Made by a program: the position numbers and the translations under genes. Positions 3,503 through 63,534 of a stretch of 64,000 nucleotides of DNA are shown piece after piece (positions within the stretch are counted from its first letter, which is position 1; the number at the start of each line of letters is the position of its first letter). The DNA is from an uncultured virus (IMG/VR IMGVR_UViG_3300028564_000002) (lineage: Duplodnaviria > Heunggongvirae > Uroviricota > Caudoviricetes), in IMG/VR virus record IMGVR_UViG_3300028564_000002. The stretch is one strand, 5' to 3'. A model generated the notes under the pieces. That model had not been told where the DNA came from. It did not search any database and worked only from the letters and a program-made list of their open reading frames with translations.

Positions 3503-5533
3503 TTACAGTATTTCCTTTATTTCATTCAGAACAACTTTTAACTTGTCAATCTGCTCTGGTAAAATTTCAGAAAATTTAGTGGGAGCACCAAATACCTGTT
3601 CAAGAATTTTACTTGCTTCTTCGACCTTTTCATTCTGAACCACCTTACCCCAAACTTCTCTTGCCTCTGTCATGAGTTCATCAAATGTCTGAACGACATA
3701 TGGGTTAACCTCATCAGAAGGTGCTTGTCCGCCTGAGTGTTTTATTTCCTCGTCAATAGCATCATAGATAGCATTTACAATGTTATCATAGCTGAACTCT
3801 ACACGAGGAACGATGTATTTAAAACGAGACTTAGCAAAGAATCTATCATCGCCACGGAAGAAGATAACTCTCTTTCTTTCGCCAGACTGTTCATCATTAA
3901 TCTCACGAATGTAACCGATGATATCAACCATCTTGTTTACAATATCATAAGGTCTCTGAGGAAGTGCTGGAGCATTCTGCTGATATTCCTCTCCTTTCTC
4001 GTCTTTAAGTGTTTTCTCTGTTGAGTGTGATATAAATATTAAGCCGTAACCTGCATAGGTTAAATCTCTGAATGTAGTTGAAAATTCCTTCTTAGCCATA
4101 TCATAGCCTTGTCCCCAAGGAATATCACCAAGCTTTTCAACTCCTGCCTAAGTACAAATGTACTTTACGCACAAGTCCCAAGCTGAGTCTACTGTATCGA
4201 TTGCAACTGAATCAAACTTCTCACGAACCTCAGCCTTTTTAATAAGCTGAGAAACAATTGTTTTCCAGTCGTTCCATGTCTTAGCAGGCTGAACATAAAC
4301 ATTGTTCAAAGCATTAGTTCCCATTTCAACGTTGATACCGTGTTTTTCAACATACTTTAACACTCATTTAAGAGTCGGACTAGACTATATCTTCTTCATT
4401 TTTAACCTCAAATATATTCGTTGCAATTATATATTTTCGAGGAAGATACATTTCTGCATCTTTATAGCAAGAAGTAATCAACTTCTTTACTAAAGCCTTT
4501 TTGGCAAGAGTTACACGATAATTTTTGCCATTTTGTGTAGGCTTATTGGTAATTTCCATTCCCGATACTTTTTCGCATAATAAGAGAAAATCATTACAAA
4601 TGTTTTTTGAATGAGAAGTGAAATTAACTCTATAATAGTTCTGATTAGGATAAATACTTCCATCGCCATCAATTAAACCTCTTAGAAAATCCTTTTCTAA
4701 AATTGCTGGAACTTTCGGTAAAACGTTTGTTAAATAGGTTTTATTTTTTACAACTCCGTATTTATTTAAATCTTTTACTATCTTATCGCTTCGAACTGTG
4801 CTTAGAAAACTTTCTTTATTTCCTCTTTTTGAATAGATAAGCTTTGATGTAATTCCAAGTTCTTCTCGATACTTTTCAAGCAAAGCAACATCAGAAGCCT
4901 TAAGTTCTAAGCGTAATTGAGATTGTTTGTCTTTTTCCTCTGTCACTGACCCATCTGTAAAAATTAACCCCAAAAAATATGCTTTATTAGGTGTATCAAT
5001 ATTTGTAAAATAATCTTCCTTTAAATTAACATTTATTTTTCTTACACGAAGTGGAATATCATTTTTAACTAATATATTTTTAATTCTTGGTTGTGTGCAA
5101 TGTCGCATTTTTGCAATATTTGTCATAGATAGTCCAGATAAGTAATCTTTACAAATTTCTTGCTCTTCTTTATCATCAATCATTCGCATTCTTTTCACCT
5201 CCTGTTGTAAAAATATAAGCAACTAATGAAGTGTGGCATTTCGTATTACTACTACTTAATTAAATAGTCGTTGAACCTTCCGCTGATTAGGCGGCTTGGC
5301 TGCTGATTGCCATATCTTTTAAGACTTAGGTTTCCCAGCAATTAACCACATTATTCAATATATATTACTATATAAGGGAGCTATTAAATTAACCCTGCAA
5401 TAAGAATCTTTGGGAACTATGCCGCCAGTGATGTTTTACCAACACCAGGTAATCCATAGAACATTGCATATTTACCTTTAAGGTTCTTGCTTATAACCTG
5501 TGGTTCAAGATTAAGTAAATCAATATTTGCCAT
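3503..5533 (-). CDS. AAA_24/Sak4-like ATPase, spliced (exon 1 5533-5392, exon 2 4329-3503)
   Basis: Walker A is YGLPGVGKT. The splice restores IAGFEMGTNAL. Walker B is VAIDTVD, followed by LIFISH. There is one in-frame TAG in each exon. Confidence 0.8.
4330..5391 (-). mobile_element. Group I intron in the ATPase gene
   Basis: The exon ends in U and the intron ends in G. Core elements AATCAGCAGCC, GTTCAACGACTA and AAGATATAGTC are present, and splicing restores the frame. Confidence 0.85.
4368..5189 (-). CDS. Intron-encoded LAGLIDADG homing endonuclease with N-terminal HTH
   Basis: Motifs YFLGLIFTDGSV and FLRGLIDGDGSI. The stop is at 4368 if TAG 4380 is read through. Confidence 0.85.
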
Positions 5534-9862: not shown

Positions 9863-12174
9863 TTAGATTGTACCAAATTTTGAAAAATCGATTCGTGAGA
9901 AAACGAAGTCTCTTCTTGGTTCTATGTCTACGCCCATAAGACTGCAAAGCTGTATAATACCCTCGTTAGAGTAAACAATCTTATCCATCTTCTGGTGTCC
10001 ATCAGTTGAGAACATAGTTGCCTTAAGGTCCTTTTCATTGAGCTGTCCAAGACCTTTGACACGCTTGATATTGCCCTTTGTCTTACCACGAGCGGCATTA
10101 AACTCTTCATCAGTATACCAACAATTCAATGGAGTACCATTCTTATCCTGTTCAATGAACAGTGGAGAACGAAGCCAGTAGATTCTGTTTTCCTCCAAGA
10201 ACTTAGGGCAAATTCTGTAAAGGTTTGCCAAGATAAGAAGAGCAATATGATATCCGTCATCCATGTAACCCAGCCTTTCGAACTGGCACTGACTATATTT
10301 TACTCTCAATTGAGAGAATGCTCTTTCCCAGTGCGTGTCAATAGCACCGGTACTCTCCTTCACGGAGATAGTCGATACACCCTTCATTTATTAATCCATT
10401 TCTTTTACCAATATAAATTTTATTATTTAGCTTATTTGTAATTTTATAAATTCCTATCATAGCTATCACCACCATAATAGAAATGGATTAATTCTGATTA
10501 GCACGGTATTCCCTTTATCTCACCATATTTCAGGTTTAGGGTTTCTTAGTCAGATTATTCGTCCTTGGGTTTGCCTATTATCTCTTGCGGTTTCAATAGG
10601 CGGTCTTATTTCTCTGATACCGTTAGCCTACGTTTATATGTAGACCGTCCTGACGAGGACTAAAGCATTTTCGGACAATGTTACTTATCCGCATCAACAC
10701 AAATAGCAATCTTACCATATCTCAATTTGTTTGGGTCATACTTGTCAGGATTGATTCCGAGAGCATAAAGAAGAAGTTCAATCTCCTTGTTGTTGTAATA
10801 CTCATCGTCATTATCAACCTTAAGTCCATTAATCATCTTACCACGCAAACGAAGAATACCATACTTTTTAGTATCACGTCCTGCGGCGGCAGCGTTACCA
10901 GCAGAATCTCCTTCAACAACACAAAGGATAGAATCCTGTCCAAGATTTTCTGCATCTGATAACTTATCAATGAACTCAATTTTCTTCTTGCTCAAATCCT
11001 GATACTTCTTCTGTCTGTTAAGTGCTTCCTTTCTTGCCTTATCAGCAGCCTTTTCAGCATTAGCAAACTTAGTCATCATTTCAATGATAACTGGGAAGTC
11101 TGGTGAATGGGATAATTCTTCAAGAGCCTCATCAAATGCCTGTGAAGCAAGTGTAGCAAGATTTGGATTGTTAATCTTATTCTTTGTCTGGTTAGCAAAA
11201 GAAGGATTAACAACGCGGCAGTTTACTGCGAAGATAAGACCTCTACGAATAATCTCAGGGTCAAAATTCTTACCACTTAAAGACTTAATCTTTGTGGTGA
11301 TTTTTCTTTTCGCACCAGTAATAGGTGAGCCGCCAAAAGGACAGTAAAGACCATTAACGAATACGTATTCCTGTGAAGGGTCACCAGTCCACATGAAAGC
11401 TATTTCCAATTCATCATATTCGTCTTTAGCAGACGCAATGATTGGAGCCTTCATAAGAGGACTTTCAACCTTATCTCTGATGAAATCAGCAATACCGTTT
11501 TCAGAATAGAACTCCTGAGTCTTGCCCTTCTCATTTGAGACGATGAAGTGAACACCCTTATTGAGGTAAGAAATGTTCTTTATTTCCTCACATATTCTGT
11601 CATAAGAAAAGCCTTCAGTCATATTTTGAAATACTTCCTTGTCAGGCTTAAAGTAGACAAGAGTGCCGTTCTTTCTTCTTTCTTTAGTTACATCACCAAT
11701 ATTTGCAAGTGAATCTTCCTTATAGTCCTTCAGAATACCCTTGTCAAATATAGCTTCTGCGAATCTCTCTTCACGAATACTACGCACATTGAAAAATTCT
11801 GAACTCATACATACAGCTGTACCACCGATACCGTTAAGACCAGAACTATTCTTGTAAGCATTTTTATCAAACTTACCGCCAGTGTGGCTTTCAGTATAAA
11901 TAGCAACAAGAATATTTCTGCCATTCTTTATACCAAAAGGAACACCACGTCCATAGTCTCGAACAGATACGCTGTTCTTCTCTTCGTCAACATTGACTTC
12001 AATTCTGTCACCATAGCCAGCGAGGGCTTCATCGGTAGAGTTGTTAATAATTTCTTTAAGTGCTTGATAGATACCATCTGTTGTGTCTGAGCCAAGATAC
12101 ATTTGTATACGTGTACGCATGGCTTCTCGAGTTTCCAAATGGTTTATAGAATCAATGCCATAATTATCTGCCAT
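9863..12174 (-). CDS. gyrB: DNA gyrase subunit B, spliced (exon 1 12174-10687, exon 2 10261-9863)
   Basis: GHKL motifs (EIINNSTDE, DYGRGVP, GLNGIG) and VEGDSA. The splice restores the TOPRIM motif DADDDGYHI, followed by KGLGQ. Confidence 0.9.
10262..10686 (-). mobile_element. ORF-less group I intron in gyrB
   Basis: The 5' exon end GGAU pairs with GUCC (P1). Core elements GTATCGACTATC and AAAATATAGTC are present, and the terminal G precedes GAT GAC GGA. Confidence 0.85.
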
Positions 12175-13431: not shown

Positions 13432-13810
13432 TATTAGTCCTCCAATACTCAAAGACAACAACTGTCATTTTATTTCTTTTCGCAGTATCAATCATATTCT
13501 TTGTTCCACGAGACTCTCCGTCCCAAAAAGCAAACAATATTCCTCCTTCTGCATACTGTGCCATTTCGGCATTTCTTATCATGCCCGCACTTTTACCATA
13601 CTTATCCCATTGAGCAGGAAAAACAGTTAGCTTAATACCATATCTGTTAGCGAATTTTTCTCCTATTTTATCGGCACCACGTGCACCGCCACTGATTATC
13701 TCAATGTCGGTGCTGTGAATACCATTCTCTTTGAAATATGATAAAAGCTTTGTTTCTGCATAAACATAATTATCGAAGTCTCTCGAACCTGCGATAATAA
13801 CTTTATTCAT
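13415..13810 (-). CDS. SLOG/DUF2493 (YspA-like) protein
   Basis: IIAGSRDF, ISGGARGAD, AGMIRNAEM and FWDGESRGT. Confidence 0.8.
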   Translation of the reverse strand: MNKVIIAGSRDFDNYVYAETKLLSYFKENGIHSTDIEIISGGARGADKIGEKFANRYGIKLTVFPAQWDKYGKSAGMIRNAEMAQYAEGGILFAFWDGESRGTKNMIDTAKRNKMTVVVFEYWRTNSGEIN

Positions 13811-16800
13811 AATCAACCTCTACTTCCATATTTGTTTCCCATTTAGCAGTCTTACCCCACTCTCTCATCTTGTATTCTGCCTTACGTGGTGCAGTCCAAG
13901 ATGTAAGAGGAACCATAAAACCAACTATTCTTGTATATTCTGTTTCTACTGGCTTACCACAAACAGGGCAAGTTGTTCCATAGAACGCATGATTATCTTC
14001 ACAAACCTGAATCTTTGTATTGAAAGCAAAGTAAGTAACGCCCTGGTCAGCGATATACTCAACCATCTTCCTTGCTGATTCATAACTCTTAAATGGAGCA
14101 TCAATATTAGCATGAAGAATTGACTTAAATAGAATATTTTTCTTGTAATCTTTTTTCAACATATGCCTTAAGTTCTTCTTGTCTCTTGCAATTATTCACA
14201 TACTCAAGTATTTTATCATCATTTCGAGTAGAACGAAAATTTTTAAATAGAATTAGTTCAGCACTATATCTTGCATAAACTGCGTCTTCTAACTTTTCAT
14301 ATCTACCAAGATAGCATTTAATTCCATCCATGCGTATTTCTGAGGTCCATTTATTGCGTTGTTTATCCCAACACACACCTGCTACCCCAGATTTGTTATT
14401 AGATAAAATAGTTTTGTTTATTAAATTTTTTGATTGGGGAATAATTCTTAAATTACTTTTTCGATTATCTGCTCGATTTCCATTTATATGGTCAACAACC
14501 ATATTTTCAGGTGGAGATAATAACCAACGATGAATTTGAATTGGCTGATAATTTCCAGTAAAATATTGACCTTTCCAAAATCTCCACTTTCTTGATAAAA
14601 CTTTTTCTAAATCTTCTGTATCAATAAGAAATTTACCAGAAGGTTCATTATTTCTATTAAAACAATAAATCCAAGTTCCTTCTTCTGTAATTTCGTATTC
14701 ATTAGAATCGAAACAAGTCTTTTGACTTTCGTCTAAGAATTTCCCAAATTTTATATACTGTGAATAATGCTTTCCACAAACTATCATAGGAATACCATGA
14801 TAGTTAATAGGATGTTGATTTGTTATGGGAATATCCTTCCCACATTGATTACATTTCATTTATATTCCTCCTTTTAGACTATCTCTTCTTACTTGGTGGG
14901 CAATCCCTCCACTGTAAGTTGTGCGCTTGGAAGTAGTGTCTATCTCTACTCCTACTGGGCTACATTCATCACCCATAGTCGTTACACCCGCTTTAAAAGC
15001 TTGGCACGGTGTTAGTCTCCTTTCACCGTTAGCCCAATTAAGGACACCCTTAGACAAGGTTCACACAATTTATTACTAAGGTGGCTCAATCTTCATCAAC
15101 CACCATTACAGAAGCTATCAAACATAGCTTGAACACGAACTCTTTCTTTAAGTGTAGCCTTAATACCAAGCGGCATAAACTGGTTACCATAAAGAGGAAG
15201 GTCGTAAATATCTGCGTCAGGATAGAAGAACATATCCTTTCTCATAAGTTTTGCAGCGGCATTTTCGCCAGGTATCTATTCTGTATTTATCTTGTAGTCA
15301 TATCCGCCGTCTTCAAGAAACTTATCAGCAACTTCTCTAATTGTTTTAAAGATAAGTTCGCCGAAATCTGCGGCCTCCTGAGTGTAATATGTATTACCAA
15401 GCTTATCATGATATGTACAACCGAACTTCTTCATTGTTTCATAAATACCGATAAATCCGATTGTATTATATAAATGTTCAAAATCAATAAGTCCATAAGA
15501 GAAGTTAGGAAGCAATCCTTTTTCAACATTTCTCTTAATAATATGACGAACAACATGAAGTGAACGAACTGCACAAAGTGTTCTTGCTTTCAATTCTTCA
15601 AGATACTCTTCCTTTGTATTTGTATCAAGAGCAAGTCTTGCGAGATTAATTGTATTAACCTTAATAGAGCCGACCTTCAATGCTGTTGAACCAATAGAGT
15701 TGAAATAGCCGAGGTCACGGATATCACTCTTAAGGCGGCAACAGTTAGAAAGACTTGATACGTTATCATCAATAAAGAGGTTAGAATCGCTCCACTTCAT
15801 ATTATGACAAATAGCCCATTCAGCGAACTCTTCATCCTTGAACTTGCCGTCTTTTCTTATCATAGAAATAGTGCTTACAGGGAAAGTAAACATATTCTCC
15901 TTACGAGTTTCTGCCATTACATCCATGTAAAGCTTCTGGAAGTCCATAATGCCGTCCATATGGTCATACATAGCTTCACCATTAGGAAACTCTGCTCCGC
16001 CAAAGAGAGCCATAAGATATTCTCTGTCAAATACAGAAGTATTTGTAAAGGCAGACTGCTGACCCACGTTATCATAATTTTCATTATGCGCTGACTATTT
16101 TTTATTACTTAGTTAAAAGTAATATTACTCTTTCCCGCCGCGTATCAATAGCGGAGGTACTCCTCTTCGCGAGGATAGTCGATACAGGCTTCGTTTAATT
16201 ATTTGCTCTAAGTGGATAGATAAGATTATCTCTCCTATACATTTTTGTTGAACCGTTTTTAATACCAATTATTATATTTGGAACTACATTATATTGCAAT
16301 GCAATTTGTCTTAAACTTATTTTTGTTGTAGAAATTAACTCAATAATTTCTGAAACTTGGTGGTAAGTTAATTGACCAGCATTTTTTGTAGCTCGGTATT
16401 GTCTAATTGGGTAAGAAATATCGTCTTGTTTATGATAAGTTCCATTATTTATTCTTGAAATAGTTCTTCCTTCTACCCCATATCTTTTTCCGATATCTTC
16501 ATAAGAAGAATAACTAAATTTTAAAGCATAAATAATTTCTTCAATATCTTCTTGGACAAGTTTACCAGTCGGATTAGGATTTTTTCTTAGTGGATATTCA
16601 TTATTTGAGTTGTAGTAAGTATTTCCTAAATTAATATCACTTACACAAGAAGAAGATACATTAAACTTTTTAGCAATATCTCTTATACTATTTTTTGTAA
16701 ATTTCAAATCTGAAACAATTTTTTCTAATTCAGTATCAGTTTTAAATTTTGCTTCAGGATGTTCAATACCTTTAAATAGAGGTGGTTCATTTCCTCCTTC

Positions 16801-19023
16801 AAGAATATTATAGCCATTTGGTCTTAAAGAATTATATTTAAGAATATAATATTTTTCTCGTTCATTGTAATTCTTTATTGGACCTTCTAATATTGACATA
16901 GTAAAATGTTCTTTACCATATTTTTGTATAGCCAAATCTATTAAACTATTATCACTATTAGGGCGGCAATGTTGATTAAATCTATGTTTAGGGTCATTTG
17001 ATTGACCAATATAAACCTTACTATTGATATCATTTGTAATTATGTAAATATATTTTTCCATTCATTTCACCTCCTTTATAATTATTTATTAGAGCAATTA
17101 AACGATTCCCACGAGATTACCATACCTATGTCTCCCGACAGGGGCTCCAGGCTCCCTCGTTAGCCACTATTTAAGTGACCCCAGTGATTACTGGAAAAGT
17201 AATAAATGGACAGTTCTAATTAGATTCTATCCCTTACACAAGGCTGATTTACAGCGTATATGAATCTCTGAATATTCTGTCTTGCATATGCTTCAGAATC
17301 ATTGATACCAAGATAAGCACTCTTTCTATCCTCATTCCAAAAGTAGTACATATAAGGAATAAGATTAGGTAATCCGACTGCCGTCGGAACTCCGATATTT
17401 CTATCGGGACTGACTGGATTTTCCTACGACCTTTGTCGCAGTGTTTCTCTGTCCCCTCACGTACCAATAGTGAGAGTACTCCACTTAACATGGATAGTCG
17501 ATACAGGCTTCATTAGAATTTTCGTAATGGATAGGACAGTCCATCACGATAATATTTTTTTGAAGTGCCGCGATTGATATTTTCAATGGCTCTTCTATCT
17601 ACATTATATCTTTTTGCAATTGAATTTATACTTTCTGAAGTATTAGATAAAGCATTTATAATTTCTGTAACTTGTTCATAGGTAAATAAAATAACTCCAG
17701 AACTTTTCCAATTTCTTATTGGATATTGGATATTATCTCGACGATGAGTCGTACCAGAATTTATCTTTGAAATGGTATGAACTTCAACTCCATATTCTCT
17801 AGCAATATCTCCATTAAAACGATAAGTATATTTTAAAATGTTAATAATGTCATCAACATCTTCTTCTGTTAATTTTCCATTTATATTTGGATTTTTTCTT
17901 ATCGGATAAGATTCATTCAACGATGCTCGGCTAATTCCTTGATTAATTCTAAGAACTTGCTTTTTTGAAATATTATATTTTTCTGCTAATTGAGATAATG
18001 GAATTTGAGTTTTTGCTAAATTATTTTTAAGTTTTAAAACCTCTTCGTCAGAAATTTTTACATTAGGATGTTCATTTCCATAGTAAATAGGAGGGCTATC
18101 TCCTCCATCCAAAATATTATACCCAAAAGGTTTCTTTGAATTATAATATTTAATCCAATATTGTTCTCGTTCATTATAATTTTCAATTTGAGATTCAAGA
18201 ATTTCAAACCAAAAATGTTCTTTGCCATATTTTTGAATTGCTTTATCTATTGAAGAGTTATCATAATCTCCTTTACAGTGAGATTTAAATCTTTTTTCTG
18301 TATCTAAGGCTTGTCCTATATATACCTTAGTATTTATATCATTTTTAATAATGTAAATATCTTTTCTAATGATTCCCACGGGATTAGCATATGAATTATC
18401 CATTCACTTAGCCTCCCCCGTTAGCCGCAAATGCGACCCTGCTGGTAAGCAGAAAAGAAACATATGGGCGCAGCAAATTCACCCGAAGTTCTATTACTTG
18501 CAAAGTTAATGAACTCCTTAACAAAGTCAACAAAAGTTGTCAAGTGCTTTGGAGGCTTTGCGTTGAAAGACTTGCCAAGGAAGTAAAGTCCCTTCTCAGC
18601 CAAATCCTTTAAATCATATGCAAAACAATAAGACTTAAAGGTTGCCGTATCTCCGTCGTGCATATAGATTTCTCCAATCCATTCTCTACGAAGCCACTCA
18701 TTAGCAGCCTTAAAACCATAGAACTTCTGCATCTCTGAATATATCTTTTGGAAAGCCATAACCTTTCTATGAGGCTTAGGCATTTCTGTTAAAAGTGTAA
18801 CAATATCCTTTCTTTTAACATTGGCATTAGAGTCAATACTTGCATCAGCAACTACATCTTCTCCAATAAAGTTATCCATAAATTCGCCGTATGAGAGCTG
18901 TTCATCACCGACGCCATTAAGATAACCCATTTCTGTTCCAAACTCATTAAAGAGAGCGTTCCACTGAATAGTGAAATTTCTATGTGTACCTCTCTTACCA
19001 ATCTAATTTACTTTATACTGCAT
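13803..19023 (-). CDS. nrdD: Class III ribonucleotide reductase in four exons (19023-18481, 17381-17229, 16064-15099, 14123-13803)
   Basis: Splices restore RTSG|AVGLPN, CVRD|GQQSAFTN and CNGG|SILHAN. Also present: YCFAY, NCCRL, NTE(TAG)IPGE, a Zn site and the glycyl-radical motif TRIVGF. Confidence 0.9.
14124..15098 (-). mobile_element. Group I intron 3 of nrdD
   Basis: P1 GGUGGU/GCCACC, core GTAACGACTA and AGAGATAGTC, terminal G. Confidence 0.85.
14125..14859 (-). CDS. HNH-AP2 homing endonuclease (intron-encoded)
   Basis: VDHINGNRADNRKSNLR followed by AP2-like SGVAGVCW...YLGRY...AVYAR. Confidence 0.85.
   Translation of the reverse strand: MKCNQCGKDIPITNQHPINYHGIPMIVCGKHYSQYIKFGKFLDESQKTCFDSNEYEITEEGTWIYCFNRNNEPSGKFLIDTEDLEKVLSRKWRFWKGQYFTGNYQPIQIHRWLLSPPENMVVDHINGNRADNRKSNLRIIPQSKNLINKTILSNNKSGVAGVCWDKQRNKWTSEIRMDGIKCYLGRYEKLEDAVYARYSAELILFKNFRSTRNDDKILEYVNNCKRQEELKAYVEKRLQEKYSI
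16065..17228 (-). mobile_element. Group I intron 2 of nrdD
   Basis: P1 GGAU/GUCC, core GTATCGACTATC and AAATAGTC, terminal G. Confidence 0.85.
16195..17061 (-). CDS. GIY-YIG homing endonuclease (intron-encoded)
   Basis: YIYIITN...VYIGQS...RFNQH, GYNI and C-terminal HTH repeats. Confidence 0.85.
   Translation of the reverse strand: MEKYIYIITNDINSKVYIGQSNDPKHRFNQHCRPNSDNSLIDLAIQKYGKEHFTMSILEGPIKNYNEREKYYILKYNSLRPNGYNILEGGNEPPLFKGIEHPEAKFKTDTELEKIVSDLKFTKNSIRDIAKKFNVSSSCVSDINLGNTYYNSNNEYPLRKNPNPTGKLVQEDIEEIIYALKFSYSSYEDIGKRYGVEGRTISRINNGTYHKQDDISYPIRQYRATKNAGQLTYHQVSEIIELISTTKISLRQIALQYNVVPNIIIGIKNGSTKMYRRDNLIYPLRANN
17382..18480 (-). mobile_element. Group I intron 1 of nrdD
   Basis: P1 GGGU/GCCC, core GTATCGACTATC, terminal G before GCA GTC GGA. 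Confidence 0.85.
17513..18403 (-). CDS. GIY-YIG homing endonuclease (intron-encoded)
   Basis: DIYIIKN...VYIGQA...RFKSH and GYNI; paralogous to 16195-17061. Confidence 0.85.
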   Translation of the reverse strand: MDNSYANPVGIIRKDIYIIKNDINTKVYIGQALDTEKRFKSHCKGDYDNSSIDKAIQKYGKEHFWFEILESQIENYNEREQYWIKYYNSKKPFGYNILDGGDSPPIYYGNEHPNVKISDEEVLKLKNNLAKTQIPLSQLAEKYNISKKQVLRINQGISRASLNESYPIRKNPNINGKLTEEDVDDIINILKYTYRFNGDIAREYGVEVHTISKINSGTTHRRDNIQYPIRNWKSSGVILFTYEQVTEIINALSNTSESINSIAKRYNVDRRAIENINRGTSKKYYRDGLSYPLRKF

Positions 19024-19285
19024 TAGTCTGCTCACCTGCCCATTTCATTGCATTTTCAAAGTCCATGTATGTGAACTTCATAAGTGTTTCTCCTTCGCCA
19101 AGTTCTTCAACTGCAAGAATAGGCACCATATCTGTGCCAATCTCTTCGCATACCTTTTCAATATCCTCCATATTATCATTGATAGTATAAGGGATATTTG
19201 CTGCATCGAGTCTCTTTGCTAAAATCTTACAGCGAGGGCATCCTGTTGAATAAAGTGTAACTCCTGTTGAATAAAGTGTAACCAT
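19013..19285 (-). CDS. nrdH: Glutaredoxin-like NrdH redoxin
   Basis: TLYSTGCPRC and the VP cis-Pro motif; overlaps the nrdD start. Confidence 0.75.
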   Translation of the reverse strand: MVTLYSTGVTLYSTGCPRCKILAKRLDAANIPYTINDNMEDIEKVCEEIGTDMVPILAVEELGEGETLMKFTYMDFENAMKWAGEQTNAV

Positions 19286-20364: not shown

Positions 20365-20847
20365 TCATTTAACTTGCCAAGTCATCATTTCATTATAAAG
20401 TTCGTGTGCAAATGAATTACCTCCAATTGCACTATATGTCTGATATAAAGAACACAGGTCATTCTTTGTATTCAAATCAAGTGTTTTATCATCACAATGC
20501 TCGTAATAAATCTAAGTAATTGAGTGTCTCACTTCGGATTTATTTATCTCACGAGTTTCGTGACGGTATTCTTCAATTCTTTTATCCATTGCCTCAAGCT
20601 TTTCAGTAAGCTCACTCCTTAGCTCCTCAACGGAGTTCTTAATGTCCTCTGCAAATTTTGTAAACATTTCGATAGCCGCATCATTCTTTCTCTTTTCTTC
20701 ATCCATTTCTTGTTTAAGCTGTTCATCAGCTTCATCAGGCTCTTTTTTAGCCTTAATAATATCAACTACTACTTTGCCGACCGCTGTAATAACAGCACCA
20801 AGTCCTGCGGCGATAGCTGCGATAATTACTTCGTTCACCTTATTCAC
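20365..20847 (-). CDS. Membrane-anchored coiled-coil phage protein (holin-like)
   Basis: N-terminal TM helix. Reading through TAG 20512 adds LYQTYSAIGGNSF. Confidence 0.55.
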
Positions 20848-21236
20848 CTCCGATTTAGCAAGTCATTGTGGAATTTATCTTTAACCCTATAAGCGGGGTT
20901 AGTAAATAAAGACTCAAAAGTGAGATTATCGTAATCCCAATATGGCACTCTTATCAGAGGAATATTCTTTCTCAAACAGTAGGCATTTTTACGTCTATCC
21001 CACTCTTGAGTCTGTTTAAACTCGAATATGGTTCTCTAAAAATAGGGAACTCTTTCAAAATGCTATTTTCCATCAAACTCTATAAAACATACCAAACTTC
21101 TACCTTTATATACCGCAAAGTCAAATCTTAATAGATTACCTTTCAGACTTTTTAAATCTGGCAGACTCACTTCTCTTTTATAAGAAACTTTATGAGCACG
21201 TAGTAATCTTTCAATTTTATCTTCGCCTTTGGACAT
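20844..21236 (-). CDS. PD-(D/E)xK (DUF2726/Vsr-like) endonuclease, missed by the ORF track
   Basis: SKGE...LRFDFAV...IEFDGK(TAG)HF...DRRKNAYC...LIRVPYW. Confidence 0.8.
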
Positions 21237-47556: not shown

Positions 47557-47804
47557 TGAATAAACTGGAAAGAGCAAAAGAAATTATTAAATCTCTTTAT
47601 AGTATTTATGATTGCGGCATTTATAATACTCGTAATATCGTAGGAGACCGTATGTCAACTATTTATGACGAAGATGGTCTGACTATTGAAGGATGTTATG
47701 AATGGTCTTATTTTGAAGTATTCGGTTTAACTGAAGTTGAGTTTATGAAACTTAAAAGTTTTTATAACTCTCTTGAATCAGAGGAGGAGGACGAAGACGA
47801 ATGA
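47556..47804 (+). CDS. Hypothetical protein
   Basis: Translationally coupled ORF. Confidence 0.5.
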   Translation: MNKLERAKEIIKSLYSIYDCGIYNTRNIVGDRMSTIYDEDGLTIEGCYEWSYFEVFGLTEVEFMKLKSFYNSLESEEEDEDE

Positions 47805-49660
47805 AAGTAGAACTTATTGGTTATACACATAAGCCTCTTTATGTATGTGCTGAGGCGGCAGCTGTCTGTTATAATAGTGAGCCTGACCTTAAAATTATAA
47901 AGGGTTGTATTCGTTCAGGACACCAGTCTGTTCTTGAACATTGCTCATTCACCTTTAAGGTAGAAGGAATTTCCCGTAGTTGCTTTGATAGAGAGACAGA
48001 AGTATTAACAAATAATGGATGGAAACATTTTTGTGATGTTGAAAATACAGACTTGATTTTTACAATAAATCAGGATACTCAAAAAGCAGAATTTCAGCCC
48101 ATCTTAAATCAGATTAAATATAAATATAATGGATTGATGCATTATTATAAATCTCAAAATATCGATTTGCTAGTAACACCAAATCATAACTTATATATGA
48201 AAAAATATGATGTAAGAGTTCCAGATAAATATCATCTATGTCCATCTGAGGACATAAAAGTGAAACGTTTTTATATGAAAAAGACTGTTAACTATGATAT
48301 AGAAGTTGATGATTATTTTACTATTCCAGGATACAGTTATTATAGAAAAAATAAAAATGGAGAGTTATATGAAAAAACGCTTTCCGATTTAAGACTCCCA
48401 AGAGATAATTTTTATAAATTATTAGCTTGGTATTTGGCAGAGGGAAGTACATATTATAATCAAAAAGAAAATTCTTATACTATTTCTATTAGTCAATTAA
48501 AAACTCAAAATATCGACCATATTATGGAAATAGTATCTAATTGTGGATTACGACCTTATTATGATGGAAAATCTATACGTTTTAAAAATATGGTTTTAGG
48601 AAAATATTTTTCTTCTTTAGGACTATCTTTAAACAAAAAAATTCCTTTTGATATTTTTACTAATTTTAATAAAAAACTATCAAAGATTTTTATAGATGAA
48701 TATATATTAGGAGATGGGACAATTCAAAAAGATAAAAGTGGAAAAATTTTTACTATTTCAAAAGAATTATCTGAACAAATTTATAATTTATGTTTTATTG
48801 CTGGATATACTGCCACTAATCATATTGATAATAGAGCAGGACAAAGTCATATATGGGATGGTCGAGAAATAAAACATAATTATCCTTGTTATATAATTAA
48901 TATTTCTATGACTGGAAAAAGAAATCATGAAATTGTGGTCAAAAAAGATTCTCACTTTTCAGAGATTCCTTTTAACGATTATGTCTATTGTATAGAGGTT
49001 CCTAATCATACTCTTTTTGTAAGAAGAAATGGAATTGCTTGTTGGTGTGGAAATTGTAGTCATCAGCTCGTGAGACACAGAATTGCTTCATATTCACAGC
49101 AAAGTCAGCGTTATGTAACCTATGATTCTGTTGACTGGGCTGTAGATGGATTAGAGTATGATGCGGTAGAACCAACCTTGCTTGCTTGCGCTGATGCTAT
49201 GACTGCTTATAAATCTATGATTGATAATGGAGTTAAGGCTGAAAATGCCAGAGCAGTATTGCCTAATGCTACTCCAACAACTATATATGTCACCATGAAT
49301 TTAAGGGCACTCATGCATTTTTGTAATGAGCGTATGTGTTCAAGAGCACAGACAGAAATTCGTAATGTTGCCATTGGTATGAAGAACGAAATCATGTGCG
49401 CAGAGTATATCACTACTGAAGAAAAAGAAATTATTGATACAGTTCTTGTTCCTAAATGCGCCGCAGGTCCTATTAAAGCCTGTCCTGAGGTCAAGGGATG
49501 CGGCAGATATAAGCCACTTAAAGAATTTGTATGGCGTCCAAAGGCAGAATGGCTTCACTATTATGCAGAGGGCGGCGGCGAAGAGTGTAGTATTTGTGGT
49601 TTTAGTGGTGGAATTAAAACATTTAAGTTCTGTCCTATGTGCGGTAGTGAGATGAGGTAA
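47801..49660 (+). CDS. thyX: FAD-dependent thymidylate synthase with an intein and a C-terminal Zn ribbon
   Basis: GHQSVLEH, SRS|CSHQLVRHRIASYSQQSQRY, ARAVLP and AQTEIR. Confidence 0.9.
   Translation: MKVELIGYTHKPLYVCAEAAAVCYNSEPDLKIIKGCIRSGHQSVLEHCSFTFKVEGISRSCFDRETEVLTNNGWKHFCDVENTDLIFTINQDTQKAEFQPILNQIKYKYNGLMHYYKSQNIDLLVTPNHNLYMKKYDVRVPDKYHLCPSEDIKVKRFYMKKTVNYDIEVDDYFTIPGYSYYRKNKNGELYEKTLSDLRLPRDNFYKLLAWYLAEGSTYYNQKENSYTISISQLKTQNIDHIMEIVSNCGLRPYYDGKSIRFKNMVLGKYFSSLGLSLNKKIPFDIFTNFNKKLSKIFIDEYILGDGTIQKDKSGKIFTISKELSEQIYNLCFIAGYTATNHIDNRAGQSHIWDGREIKHNYPCYIINISMTGKRNHEIVVKKDSHFSEIPFNDYVYCIEVPNHTLFVRRNGIACWCGNCSHQLVRHRIASYSQQSQRYVTYDSVDWAVDGLEYDAVEPTLLACADAMTAYKSMIDNGVKAENARAVLPNATPTTIYVTMNLRALMHFCNERMCSRAQTEIRNVAIGMKNEIMCAEYITTEEKEIIDTVLVPKCAAGPIKACPEVKGCGRYKPLKEFVWRPKAEWLHYYAEGGGEECSICGFSGGIKTFKFCPMCGSEMR
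47981..49054 (+). mobile_element. Intein with endonuclease domain in ThyX
   Basis: Begins CFDRETEVLT; block B VTPNH; AWYLAEGS and ILGDG; ends WCGN followed by Cys+1. Confidence 0.9.
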
Positions 49661-54535: not shown

Positions 54536-55044
54536 ATGGAACAGCTTATTAAAAAGTTTGAATACAAGGATAAGGTATTACTACCATAGAAGAGATTTAT
54601 GAGTATGATAGTAAAGTCTTTCAAGAGTGGCGAGATGCTGGCTTTATCAAAGGAACTGAAAAAGAAGAATTTGAAGAGGCTACTGACCGCTATATGCTCG
54701 ATGTGCTCCGTTCAATTATATTCGACCCCGAACAAGACTTTGAGACAGACGAAGAGGCGAATGCCGCTTATGAAGAATCTATTGACCTTGGTCGTCAATT
54801 CTTAAAACTTGCATATGAACTTGACTTTTGGGACTATGCAGAAAAGACAGCTGATGGCACAGACCTTGATGACAGTTATATGGACGTAACCTATTACTTT
54901 AAGGACTACAAGGAAGAGAATCTTTACTTTGCTTTCAGTGGCAGAGAAACTCCTTGGACAAGTTATGATGAACATGACTATACTTTTTGGGCGGCGAAGC
55001 GTGTTCCAGTAACCACATATGAATATGTTTCTTATGATAAATAA
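54536..55044 (+). pseudogene. Acidic hypothetical protein, apparently frameshifted near 54573
   Basis: The ATG 54536 frame differs from the long frame that opens at 54574. Confidence 0.45.
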
Positions 55045-55128
55045 ATTTTAAATAAAGAAAATTTGACTTTTTAAAAAATCTTTGATATAATATATATAGA
55101 AAATCAAAAAGAAAAGGAATGATGCTTG

Positions 55129-56052
55129 ATGATGTTAAAAAAGTATGTTGATATCGAGCGTCTTAAGGATAAGTACGCTGAGGCTTTCAAGGCAGGAGAG
55201 CATATTACAATCACAGAGAAGATTGATGGTGCAAATGCATCCATCTCTGCAAACGAGGATGGCACACTTTCTTGTTTCTCAAGAAGACAGGAGCTGAGTG
55301 CTGAGAACGGTCTTCAGGGTTTCTACAACTACGTTCAGACTCTTGACCCAACTATTATCTCAGCTACACTTGGCACAAGATACATCTTTTTCGGTGAGTG
55401 GAATTGTAAGCATACAATCGTATACCCTGAGAGCCGCCTTAAGCAGTTCTACGTATTCGATGTATGGGACACTGAGATTGAGCAGTACCTCCCTTGGGAG
55501 CAGACTAAGCAGATGGCAGAGTTCTGCGGTCTGAAGATGGTTCCGCTCTTCTACGACGGTCCTTTCACATCTTGGGAGGATATCTACAAGTTCGTAGGTA
55601 AGACTGAGATGGAGGGTAGTCCTACTGGTGAGGGTATCGTCATCAAGTCACAGGACCGTCTTGACAATAAGTCAAGCAGAACACCTGCATACGTAAAGAT
55701 TGTCGCAAAGGAGTTCTCTGAGGTTCACCAGTCTAAGCCACAGAAGGAGATTGACCCAGAGAAGCTTGCCAAGAAGCAGGCTGATGAGGCTCTCGCTGCA
55801 ACAATCGTAACTGAACGAAGGGCGGAAAAAACTTTGGAAAAACTTATTGACGATACTCTTTTAAAACCTGACTGGGATGAGCATGATTTAGGCTATCTTG
55901 CTAAAACCGCACCTAAATTGGTATATGAAGATTGTAGAAAAGAGGAGCCTGAAATTGTAAATGCCATTGAAAACTTTGGAAAAATTTGTGCTAAATTAAC
56001 TATGGCTCATATCCGCAACATTCTTCTTAATAAAAGCTCAGAAATTATTTGA
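55129..56052 (+). CDS. Rnl2-family RNA ligase
   Basis: TEKIDGAN, FGEW, FYVFDV, EGIVIK and KIV. Confidence 0.85.
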   Translation: MMLKKYVDIERLKDKYAEAFKAGEHITITEKIDGANASISANEDGTLSCFSRRQELSAENGLQGFYNYVQTLDPTIISATLGTRYIFFGEWNCKHTIVYPESRLKQFYVFDVWDTEIEQYLPWEQTKQMAEFCGLKMVPLFYDGPFTSWEDIYKFVGKTEMEGSPTGEGIVIKSQDRLDNKSSRTPAYVKIVAKEFSEVHQSKPQKEIDPEKLAKKQADEALAATIVTERRAEKTLEKLIDDTLLKPDWDEHDLGYLAKTAPKLVYEDCRKEEPEIVNAIENFGKICAKLTMAHIRNILLNKSSEII

Positions 56053-56094
56053 GGATAAAATAATAATTTCTACATCTTTATTGAGGTGATAAGA

Positions 56095-57009
56095 ATGGGA
56101 AAATTTATTGATTTGACTGGATAGATATTTGGCGATTTAACTGTCATTGAAAGAGATACAACTGTTGCCGCAAGAGAAGCATATTGGAAATGTCGCTGTA
56201 GTTGCGGAAATATAATTTCGACAAGAGGGAGCACCCTTAGAGGTGGAAAAGCTACTTCCTGTGGATGTATGTCTGGTAAGAAAGCTGGCGAAAAAATGAC
56301 AAAAGATTTAACTGGTTAGACTTTTGGCGAACTAACAGTTTTATAGAAAGATGAAACTAACACTCAAAAAGGAGCATTTTGGATTTGTAAATGTTCTTGT
56401 GGGACAATAAAAACTATAAATGGTTCATCTCTTCGCCGCGGTGCCACCAAGAGTTGTGGATGTAAGTCTGCGCTTTTTGAAAGTCAAAAATATTATAAAG
56501 AAGATTTAAGCGGTGAAGTTTTTGGACGTTGGTAGGTTATAAAAAGAGATGAGGAAAATCATTTAGGACAAGGGGCTTATTGGCTTTGTCAATGTTCTTG
56601 TGGGACAGCGAAATCAGTAAGAGAAACAAACCTTAAAAACGGAAAGAGCTTATCTTGTGGATGTTTACAATCTCGTGGCGAATGGCTGATTTCTAATTGT
56701 TTAAAAGAACTTGGCTATGATTATAAATCTTAGTATAGTTTCCCTGAGCTGTTAGGAGATTATCTTCCATTACGATTTGATTTTGCTATATTTGATAATG
56801 ATACTATTTTAGCTTTAATAGAATATTAGGGAGAACAGCATTATCAAAACAGAGAATTTTTTGAAACGCATTAGTCTTTTGAAAAAAGGCAAGAATATGA
56901 TTAGAGAAAAAGAGATTATTGTAAAAATAATAATTTAACTTTAATTGAAATTCCGTATTGGGATTATAATAAAATTAACAAAGAGTATATTTCACATCTT
57001 ATTAAGTAA
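56095..57009 (+). CDS. Free-standing homing endonuclease: three Zn-binding repeats plus a PD-(D/E)xK domain, missed by the ORF track
   Basis: Three copies of DLTGxxFGxLxV...WxCxCSCG...SCGC, then SRGE, RFDFAIF, IEY(TAG)GEQHY and IEIPYW; many TAGs. Confidence 0.8.
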
Positions 57010-57022
57010 GGAGGAAGAAATA

Positions 57023-57172
57023 ATCGACCTCGGTGTAATCGCAAAGCATCTCCCTCGTGCAGTTTACAATGACTGTGTAAAGGAGGAATCCGAGACAGTT
57101 GAGCAGATTGAGAACTTCGGCAAGATTTGCGGCGCTCTCTCAATGAAGCTTGCAAGAGGTCTTATCAAGTGA
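57023..57172 (+). pseudogene. Displaced duplicate 3' end of the RNA ligase gene
   Basis: DLGVIAKHLPRAVYNDCVKEESETVEQIENFGKIC matches the ligase segment DLGYLAKTAPKLVYEDCRKEEPEIVNAIENFGKIC. Confidence 0.8.
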
Positions 57173-57291
57173 TATTTGACGTAGACATTGCATTAGAATT
57201 AAAAGAATAGTTTGAGAAGGAGTTACTTGCCAACGCTATAGAACTCCTTCCTCCTACAAATAAAACAACAAATACTATGGAGGAAAAAAGT

Positions 57292-57897
57292 ATGACAAAT
57301 GATTTCATGAAGGGTATGTTCGGTGCACTCGGTAAGGGTATGTGCAAGATAACATTGGATGGCGGCATCGCTGTAAAGACTTCTGACGGATATAAGACTT
57401 ATGATAAGACAAGCGGTTCTTTTATAAATTGTGATAGCTTCTGCTTTGGCGGACTTGACGAAATGTTTTTCGTAGTTCCTACTAACGCAGTTGCAGAGGG
57501 CGATATAATTTTTGCTAAGGGTAAGCCTCGTTATGTTCTCAAGGTGGATACTAATACTATCACTGTAATCAACTACGAAAATGCTACGGTAGAGACTATC
57601 CTTCCTGAGCGTCACATTTTTATGGGTAATACCTACTTCTACGGCAAGATTGTATCTATGTTCGGCAATGGCGACAATCTTACAGGCGGAGCTGGAGCAC
57701 AGAACATCATGAAGTACATGATGATGAGCCAGATGTGCAAGAACATGGGCGGCGGAGATATGAACCCTATGATGATGATGATGTTTATGAACGGCGGCGG
57801 ATTTGGAGATGTGTTCAATAACATTTTCAGTGCCATGACACCTCCAACTCTTGCACCTAAGACAACTGAGACTGAGACTGATAAGGAGGATAAGTAA
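57292..57897 (+). CDS. Hypothetical protein with a Met/Gly-rich C-terminus
   Basis: GGAGG RBS; NPMMMMMFM. Confidence 0.65.
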   Translation: MTNDFMKGMFGALGKGMCKITLDGGIAVKTSDGYKTYDKTSGSFINCDSFCFGGLDEMFFVVPTNAVAEGDIIFAKGKPRYVLKVDTNTITVINYENATVETILPERHIFMGNTYFYGKIVSMFGNGDNLTGGAGAQNIMKYMMMSQMCKNMGGGDMNPMMMMMFMNGGGFGDVFNNIFSAMTPPTLAPKTTETETDKEDK

Positions 57898-61593: not shown

Positions 61594-61686
61594 GCGGTAT
61601 TGGTGTAATGGTAACATATCTGAAATGTCGGGTTCGACCCCGCATCCGAACAGAGGTTGCGAGTTCGACTCTCGTATACCGCTCCA
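61594..61686 (+). tRNA. tRNA-Gly-like RNA whose anticodon loop is replaced by an extra hairpin
   Basis: Acceptor GCGGTAT/ATACCGC + T-CCA, D arm, T arm GCGAG-TTCGACT-CTCGT, and a 28-nt segment between TCTG and CAGA. Confidence 0.7.
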
Positions 61687-62063: not shown

Positions 62064-63534
62064 CAAGCCAGAAAACCCCTAATCTTTAGATTAGGGGATG
62101 AATGGCTAATACACAATCCAACCTAAGTTGGCATAAATTGATTGTAATTTTAGTTATTTTAGTATATAATATACATATAGCAAATATTAAAGAAAGGAGG
62201 TTAATAAAGCATGGAATATGCAGTACAAAGTAATGTAATTCGTGGACTTACAAAAGAACAACATCAGATTTTAACAGAGTTGTGCCAATATTCAAATAAT
62301 CTCTATAATGTAGCACTTTACAATATTAGACAGTATTTCTTTGCTCAAAATAAGTTTTTAACTTATGAAAGCAATTATCACGAATGTAAGGATAATGAAA
62401 ATTACAGTTTACTACAAGCTGGTGTTGCACAACAGACTATGAAAGTAGTAGACAGGTCTTTTAAGTCATTCTTTAACTTACTTAAAAAGTGCAAGCAAGG
62501 CGAATATCGTTACAATGATGTTAAGATTCCACACTATCGCAAGAAAGGTGGACTTTTTAACCTTGTGTTATCTACCAATGCTATTTCTATCAAAGATGGG
62601 TATTTCAAAATTCCTATGAGTAGAGAATATCGCAAACTTAAAAACTACAAAGACGATATTAAGATACCGTTTCCTAGTAGATTACAGGATAAAACTATTA
62701 AAGAAGTTCGTATATTGCCTTGTAGTAATGGTAAGTATTTTAAGGTACAGTATGTCTATGTTGTAGAGCAAGAAATTAAGACTTTAGATAAGGATAAAGT
62801 TATGGCTATTGATATAGGAGTAGAAAACCTTGCTACTTGTGTTTCCAATGTAATGACACCATTCATTATGGATGGTCGTAGGATTAAATCAATCAACCAG
62901 TATTGGAATAAGCAAATGGCAAAGTGTAAATCTATTGCTATGAAACAGCAAAAGACATCTAAAGTCACTACAAACCGTATTCAAAGACTTACTACTAAAA
63001 GAAATAATCAGGTTACTGACTGTATTAAGAAAACAGCTAGATATATTATCAATCAATGCCTTGCAAATAATATAGGAACTTTAATTGTGGGTTATAACAA
63101 AGATTTCAAGCGTTCTGTAAATATAGGAAAGCAGAATAATCAAAACTTTACACAATTACCATTTGGTAGTCTAAGAGAGCAATTACAATTCTTATGTTGG
63201 AAGTATGGTATTGAGTACATAGAAGTAGAAGAAAGTTATACATCAAAGAGTAGTTTTTTGGATAATGATGAATTACCAGAGTATAGACCAGAGCAACCAT
63301 ATACAAAAGGTTTTAGTGGTAAAAGAATAAAAAGAGGGCTATACCAAAGTAAGAATGGTACAACTATCAATGCAGATGTAAATGGAGCATATAATATATT
63401 AAGAAAAGGTAAGCAGGACTTCACTTGTGAAGAACTGTCTAGTGGGCTATTGGCAAGTCCGTTACGAATAAGGTTGTCGTAAGGCAACAAACTTGGTAAG
63501 AATCCCCGATGCTTTAGCATCGTGGGAGTGTCAA
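62064..63534 (+). mobile_element. IS200/IS605-family element carrying tnpB only
   Basis: Left hairpin CCCCTAATC-TTTA-GATTAGGGG; right hairpin CGATGC-TTTA-GCATCG followed by the TCAA end; no tnpA. Confidence 0.8.
62211..63482 (+). CDS. tnpB: TnpB RNA-guided nuclease
   Basis: LYNVALY, AIDIGVENL, EESYTS and NADVNGAYNIL. Confidence 0.9.
   Translation: MEYAVQSNVIRGLTKEQHQILTELCQYSNNLYNVALYNIRQYFFAQNKFLTYESNYHECKDNENYSLLQAGVAQQTMKVVDRSFKSFFNLLKKCKQGEYRYNDVKIPHYRKKGGLFNLVLSTNAISIKDGYFKIPMSREYRKLKNYKDDIKIPFPSRLQDKTIKEVRILPCSNGKYFKVQYVYVVEQEIKTLDKDKVMAIDIGVENLATCVSNVMTPFIMDGRRIKSINQYWNKQMAKCKSIAMKQQKTSKVTTNRIQRLTTKRNNQVTDCIKKTARYIINQCLANNIGTLIVGYNKDFKRSVNIGKQNNQNFTQLPFGSLREQLQFLCWKYGIEYIEVEESYTSKSSFLDNDELPEYRPEQPYTKGFSGKRIKRGLYQSKNGTTINADVNGAYNILRKGKQDFTCEELSSGLLASPLRIRLS

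Follow-up and report, generated by a model that had tools for sequence, protein, structure and literature searches.

A probable non-splicing homing element at a phage RNA ligase gene, made up of a foreign ligase tail and a Vsr-like endonuclease

How does a nuclease gene come to stand between an RNA ligase gene and a second copy of that ligase's own C-terminal end, with the ligase itself still complete? The question is raised by a 64,000-nucleotide stretch of DNA from an uncultured virus of the Caudoviricetes (IMG/VR record IMGVR_UViG_3300028564_000002), the whole of which is referred to here as the window. The feature is real, and the mechanism of non-splicing replacement that was initially proposed for it is supported in outline. 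The locus is very probably a non-splicing homing element, the unit of which is a foreign ligase tail together with a Vsr-like endonuclease.

The window uses a recoded TAG. With TAG read as glutamine (table 15), ORFs cover 0.92 of the stretch, compared with 0.80 under table 11, and TAG serves as the gene end in 0 of the 58 window genes examined. A TAG suppressor tRNA was not found within the window; a tRNA-like gene with an unassigned four-base anticodon call lies at 61594–61686 (+). The order of the element is host 5′ part, foreign tail in frame, nuclease and stranded native tail, and the non-coding gaps in the locus are of 42 and 16 nt only:

55063..55091 (+): sigma-70-like promoter upstream of the ligase, 11/12 consensus match with an extended -10
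55129..55812 (+): resident 5′ part of the Rnl2-like RNA ligase, codons 1–228 (nucleotidyltransferase domain)
55813..56052 (+): incoming replacement tail, type A, codons 229–307, AT-rich and in frame
55813..55860 (+): candidate recognition or cleavage region, with a sequence correlate at codon 237
56073..56088 (+): small predicted hairpin that pairs the nuclease ribosome-binding site, z -0.7
56095..57009 (+): free-standing nuclease ORF, 304 aa, eight TAG codons read as Gln
56107..56664 (+): three tandem Cys-rich beta repeats of about 65 aa each
56665..57006 (+): Vsr-like catalytic domain with conserved E196, D229, E243, H249 and D269
57026..57172 (+): stranded native tail, 48 codons plus stop (ligase residues 253–300), open frame, without an ATG

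Residues 25–184 of the ligase match PF09414 in Pfam (E 4.7e-27) and phrog_548 is also matched, while a sequence search of solved structures gave one weak match, to an archaeal ligase. The swapped region is the part of the protein that follows the catalytic domain. In Rnl2 the C-terminal domain serves the later steps of ligation. The switch in codon use reported at about 55813, from AAG/GAG to AAA/GAA, is evident: Lys and Glu codons are AAG or GAG in 42 of 43 cases in codons 1–228, as against 3 of 19 in codons 229–307. The stranded copy returns to the first style (9/10), as had been described, although its start lies at 57026 and not at 57023. GC3 takes the values 0.52, 0.24 and 0.52 over the same three segments. 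The optimal change point is 55813 itself (Fisher p 5.7e-11, without correction for scanning), and the runner-up among the 58 window genes tested reaches 2.6e-3, likewise uncorrected. Since other carriers differ at 55815 and 55823, the left boundary is loose by a few codons (55812 to about 55830).

The in-gene tail is foreign, the stranded copy is native, and empty alleles exist. The stranded copy matches ligase residues 253–300 (tblastn E about 1e-14 on near-identical loci) with a score reached by 0 of 100 shuffles, and it shares 47% DNA identity with its in-gene counterpart. It accounts for 48 of about 72 displaced codons; the initial view that the native 3′ end was kept behind the nuclease holds for these 48, but not for the other 24, which were replaced without any copy. 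In the best 120 of 1,091 protein matches, 119 of which differ from the query, the ligase end is nearer the stranded copy in 112, nearer the in-gene tail in six and tied in one, with medians of 0.81 and 0.54, respectively. Ten protein clusters are 93–99% identical to the window's ligase over residues 1–228; seven of these end like the stranded copy (85–90% versus 54–56%), the other three bear a second foreign tail, and the window's tail is found in none. In DNA identity, the empty loci L004 and L005 reach 84% with the stranded copy, as against 52–53% with the in-gene version. Nuclease-free relatives, which had been named as the test of the proposal, thus carry the stranded version of the 3′ end and not that of 55813–56052.

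Contigs bearing the empty allele were sought in 4 of 21 listed runs. Contig 15 of run X16 (19.9 kb, depth 33) tracks the window to 55811, continues with 84 other bases and resumes at 57037; the short contig 22 of run X17, without the nuclease, has 73 other bases instead and resumes at 57026. As these gaps equal the length of the in-gene counterpart, both contigs, which come from samples other than the window's, are empty alleles. Contig 15 also has 708 extra bases exactly at the site corresponding to 55402–55407 within the ligase, where the window encodes Trp-Asn-Cys and 105 of 121 ligase sequences checked have Trp-Leu-Val. Five of the 121 contain a 236-residue intein, which begins after the Leu and ends with Asn before Cys, and the window's site is a probable scar of intein loss one codon off.

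Behind the nuclease, the stranded copy starts 16 bases past the stop codon in the window and 2 bases past it in locus L014. Of the remnant, L014 retains six codons and L003 none, and in one X16 contig its frame is disturbed. A purine-rich run in front of the stranded copy was considered as a ribosome-binding site and rejected; in L014 it encodes the last Arg/Lys codons of the nuclease, and so it gives no evidence for translation of the remnant. Further on, at 57169–57276 (+), the frame of the next gene is open from a GTG that overlaps the stranded stop codon, through one TAG, and L003 carries an extension matching this open frame, which is possibly a vestige of translational coupling.

A diverged replacement 3′ end was indeed brought in, as initially proposed, but its sequence is probably that of a foreign ligase allele and not of a recoded native copy. 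In a quick tree of the tails, the type A tail falls with L008 and L009, which are more distant ligases (support 90), and it therefore probably came by borrowing from a different lineage. Since the tail served to define the groups, their unity on this tree is by construction.

The TAG-rich gene that follows the ligase is a single, intact open frame under table 15 (56095–57009), encoding 304 residues with eight TAG codons read as Gln, one of which aligns with Gln in 15 of 16 homologues. The three Cys repeats noted in it were located at residues 33–58, 98–123 and 165–190; phrog_374 matches the nuclease three times, and the repeats are presumed to be zinc-binding DNA-recognition modules. In a structure model made from 16 sequences (pLDDT 86, pTM 0.47), a C-terminal domain follows three repeats rich in beta structure. 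Modelling repeats one and two from a single sequence gave no usable fold (pLDDT 38), and a wide fold search barely covered the repeats. The C-terminal domain (model residues 191–304) resembles Vsr (1cw0; Z 11.2, rmsd 2.4, 104 aligned) and the homing endonuclease I-Bth0305I (3r3p; Z 10.1, rmsd 2.8, 91 aligned), but a RAP-domain protein equals the latter at Z 10.1, so that nuclease activity is not shown by the fold alone. Foldseek gave no match to the nuclease at E ≤0.001, a sequence search of solved structures gave no useful match, and neither DUF723 nor DUF4397 was matched in Pfam at E 0.1.

Across the 16 sequences D229, E243, H249 and D269 are invariant and E196 nearly so. The (D/E)xK position is occupied by E243-Y-Q245, and Gln, not Lys, is found there in 15 of 16 homologues. 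The domain had been read as a PD-(D/E)xK nuclease; the canonical form of that domain is not present, the Lys being absent and the fold resembling Vsr and I-Bth0305I, and sequence and model together point to a Vsr-like, His-using branch. The architecture, too, had been called unusual. It is instead common though uncharacterised, with 3,076 proteins matched at E ≤1e-30, some of which may match by the repeats alone. One homologue, 31% identical, is encoded within an intron in the terminase gene of a staphylococcal phage. A second stand-alone ORF with similar nuclease motifs (130 aa, two TAG codons) is found in the window at 20844–21236 (-).

The cassette has spread over several ligase backgrounds. 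The window's tail is found in six clusters at 94–98% identity, on 5′ parts that are 64–75% alike; these six other type A carriers are protein records without DNA context, in which linkage to the nuclease is not readable. In a tree of the 5′ parts, drawn from 53 hand-chosen rows after removal of inteins, four changes are required to account for the seven type A carriers, and well-supported branches force three or more of these. A single origin of type A was recovered in 0% of 200 bootstrap trees, one type A carrier is the sister of the empty locus L105, and type B needs three changes. Set against the tail groups, this tree indicates discordant histories for the 5′ and 3′ parts of the ligase. 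In run X15, contig 13 combines a complete cassette (96% identity) with a 5′ part that has diverged, and in run X16 the cassette occurs on another background, beside an empty allele in the same sample.

Linkage between tail and nuclease can be followed where DNA context is available. After cut, short-flanked, motif-lacking and duplicate entries were dropped, 130 ligase records gave 70 distinct tails. A member of the nuclease family lies 42–52 nt downstream of five of these, all five tails being distinct, and the window's tail is found in none of the other 65, which have no adjacent nuclease; a distant nuclease match 742 nt downstream in L100 was counted as not adjacent. A genome collection contained 10 ligase loci, and the nuclease is absent downstream in the five closest, which were those checked. 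Three of the closest loci in this collection are 34–184 kb contigs in Oscillospiraceae-type bins, a weak hint as to the host group. Scans of viral contigs with DNA patterns gave no loci beyond those already in the set.

Three further tail-plus-nuclease types occur at the ligase, namely B (L003), C (L019–L021) and D (L022), with nucleases 56, 61 and 47% identical to the window's. In type B (L003, L095) the tail diverges from the same codon as in the window, and no remnant is left; the codon use of this tail is host-like (13/15 G-ending). Type C departs at about the window's boundary and has a nine-codon remnant, matching the empty relative L011, fused to the end of the nuclease, and type D flips later and strands about 40 codons. 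Carriage does not depend on the remnant, given that type B has none and that in L014 it is down to six codons. Instead of stacking, one type appears to take the place of another. At about 1210–1470 in L014, behind the six-codon remnant, lies a C-terminal fragment of a second Vsr-like nuclease, which is possibly an older element that has been pushed rightwards.

Other explanations of this arrangement have been weighed. The initial annotation held that no splicing is needed, and this is borne out by a ligase completed in frame and by the lack of any intron model matching the locus. Were the insert a self-splicing intron and the stranded copy its true second exon, the open frame and stop codon retained in that copy would be explained, and distant homologues of the nuclease are indeed intron-encoded. 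However, no intron model matches 55000–57400 at E ≤5 and the sole ribozyme match is one expected by chance (18 bits against a cut-off of 65), whereas the same model library does find a group I intron elsewhere in the window. The gaps of 42 and 16 nt leave no room for an intron, splicing from 55813 would lose 24 codons, and the supposed exon is truncated in L014, missing from L003 and disturbed in frame in the X16 contig. A contig of the RNA-labelled run X14 crosses 55813 into the nuclease, with no skipping joint listed; the RNA evidence of this run consists of contigs only, which may hold DNA, and the missing RNA cover over the stranded copy was discounted as evidence. An intron is accordingly regarded as extremely improbable.

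Two other explanations retain the nuclease and change its role. The tail might be selected cargo, exchanged by ordinary recombination at a conserved linker for its altered ligase function, with a nuclease that hitchhikes or cuts elsewhere; such a view fits a swap that spans the region after the catalytic domain, and the partial tails in native-ended proteins such as P0044, P0064 and P0018. Plain exchange, however, leaves no stranded copy right behind the nuclease stop, as is seen in types A, C and D, and where DNA context is available 5/5 distinct cassette tails are nuclease-linked, against 0/65 of the others, which makes this explanation unlikely. It is less likely still that the nuclease is chiefly a weapon against co-infecting relatives, with gene conversion as a by-product, although such a role is compatible with homing. 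Marker exclusion by free-standing phage nucleases is described in passages of PMC2988022 and PMC12724721, empty and filled alleles occur on different phage backgrounds within one sample (run X16), and the short Glu-237 patches in native-tailed ligases, discussed below, could be products of escape or repair. Nevertheless, the presence of the cassette on several separate 5′ backgrounds requires copying and not killing alone. A homing element that carries its own replacement tail thus remains the preferred reading.

The candidate target lies at the start of the tail. At codon 237 (55837–55839), cassette types A, B and C have Glu, whereas empty alleles mostly have CAG, for Gln. Glu-237 is present in 19 of 20 cassette-type tails and in 26 of 99 native-type tails, the rows being related and not independent. 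The exception, the type B tail P0021, retains the native Gln-237 segment, and together with the 26 native-type tails it means that the site call is not clean. The 26 may represent short patches left by repair, which would make their bearers immune.

Half of the Gln codons of the nuclease (8 of 16) are TAG; in the remaining 57 genes the share is 67 of 541 (p 4e-4). The ligase has no TAG codons, and nor do types C and D. No promoter-like site of the quality of that upstream of the ligase was found within the cassette, and no terminator-like site in 54900–57400; the promoter at 55063..55091 is, from this layout, the likely source of the nuclease transcript. The predicted hairpin over the nuclease ribosome-binding site does no better in the window than shuffled sequence, 46 of 200 shuffles being as good; pairing of a similar kind was also predicted for types B, C and D (z -0.1 to -2.4). 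For a recoded intron endonuclease in an early gene, a delay until late infection has been proposed, as set out in part of 10.1101/2021.08.26.457843.

From these features we infer cleavage, resistance, a repair route and late expression. During co-infection, the nuclease would cut an empty ligase allele near codons 229–240, and the break would be repaired from the carrier genome, as the anatomy of the locus and the model for WHO elements suggest. The left repair arm would be the conserved sequence before codon 229, and the right arm the stranded old tail or the DNA just past it; by analogy, the stranded native tail is likely to serve as the downstream homology arm. Comparison of empty and filled alleles shows that the recipient acquires the foreign C-terminal part at the cost of 24 native codons, while what remains of its old tail stays behind the nuclease. 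As the foreign part is gained in frame, the ligase is whole without an intron or intein. The altered sequence at the cut site would shield the carrier, and the nuclease, probably read from the ligase transcript, is probably held back until the TAG code switch.

Tail-carrying homing is known from yeasts and fungal mitochondria; here a probable case of it has moved between related phages. According to passages of PMC7282813, WHO elements at FBA1 in Torulaspora/Lachancea yeasts leave the old 3′ end stranded downstream, and show conflicting 5′ and 3′ trees and several diverged nucleases per locus, as is the case here. They differ in encoding an intein-like LAGLIDADG–zinc finger protein in yeast nuclei, in having allele-specific cleavage demonstrated, and in the fragments, which start close to the point of cleavage and accumulate in clusters (PMC7282813), whereas here the fragment starts 24 codons past the boundary. 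With its Vsr-like fold and phage ligase target, the window's nuclease stands outside the WHO family proper. Mobile ORFs in Glomus atp6, atp9, cox2 and nad3 have the same order of core gene, foreign C-terminus, endonuclease and native C-terminus in the part of PMC3630166 that describes them, and a further mobile endonuclease ORF with a foreign C-terminus is cited there from Allomyces macrogynus atp6. These fungal mitochondrial ORFs also resemble the present case in that the tail comes from another lineage and in showing both partial and complete replacement; they differ in being organellar, of LAGLIDADG or GIY-YIG type, and sometimes fused in frame to the host gene (PMC3630166, in part), unlike the window's nuclease, which is a separate ORF with its own ribosome-binding site.

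Among phages, passages on intronless homing by the seg and mob genes of T4 (PMC2988022) describe a free-standing, promoterless nuclease beside a conserved gene, as here. In passages on the HEG-islands of ICP1-like phages (PMC10055350), pieces of essential genes next to homing genes are noted as potential substrates for recombination, and homing nucleases bear repeated zinc-finger modules, but are of the T5orf172 type. In these T4 and ICP1 cases an intergenic nuclease cuts at sites that are hundreds or thousands of bases away, or the nucleases bracket islands, and a nuclease with its own replacement gene end is not described in those passages (PMC2988022, PMC10055350). Nor was a phage paper describing one found in a search that covered the subscription literature thinly. 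I-Bth0305I, the EDxHD prototype (PDB 3r3p), is described in part of PMC3239194 as having a C-terminal Vsr-type fold behind N-terminal repeats, with conserved acidic residues and a His, like the window's nuclease. However, I-Bth0305I is intron-encoded and has two NUMOD2 helix-turn-helix repeats (PMC3239194, same part), whereas the window's nuclease is free-standing with three Cys-rich beta repeats. The two are 19% identical over the aligned domain, and the window's nuclease, as modelled, appears to fit the EDxHD family only by fold.

Members of the nuclease family are also found at other genes. In a survey of 41 distinct members from 158 loci, 32 had an upstream gene, which in four cases shows a 3′ duplicate that beats all 100 shuffles; the four are two ligases, one nrdD-like gene and a further gene. 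Of the 34 with a downstream gene, three show a 5′ duplicate, one of them doubtful. As the duplicates that pass the shuffle test are few, end replacement is recurrent in the family and not its rule. By eye, the 3′ cases at L037/L038 and L230 include the end of an nrdD-like gene, and L244, L240 and L040 have the nuclease beside duplicated starts of DNA ligase-like and gyrB-like genes; the score of the 5′ duplicate in L040 was reached by 4 of 100 shuffles.

Several other elements and interrupted genes occur in the window. A group I intron match (5165–5400, 58 bits) within 4368–5400 (-) adjoins a 273-aa ORF that is LAGLIDADG-like by eye. At 13803–19285 (-) an nrdD-like gene lies in several pieces, split by one HNH-like and two GIY-YIG-like AT-rich ORFs (all labelled by eye), with no Rfam intron match at gathering score in this interval. 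Labels given by eye also apply to a gyrB-like gene split over two ORFs that lie about 290 bp apart (9863–12174, -), a ThyX-like ORF of 619 aa with an intein-like insert (47801–49660, +) and a TnpB-like ORF (62211–63482, +), which has no TAG in 28 Gln codons and is possibly a recent arrival.

A broader picture can be drawn, which we regard as possible rather than probable. The ligase linker before the C-terminal domain would be the contested target of a clade of competing Vsr-like homing nucleases, each bringing a whole-domain replacement together with immunity, and immune patches would spread without the nuclease. The TAG switch would limit cutting to late infection and confine type A to recoded phages, and the nuclease family would invade other genes by replacing their 3′ or 5′ ends, a general non-splicing route. 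At the locus itself, the finding means that a phage homing nuclease can hold a conserved gene without splicing by replacing about a quarter of the protein. Genes that bear the cassette are chimeras in phylogenies. The WHO-type model becomes testable in phage, with a predicted target region of less than 50 bp, and a large, uncharacterised family of modular Vsr-like nucleases comes into view, the repeats of which may set the target.
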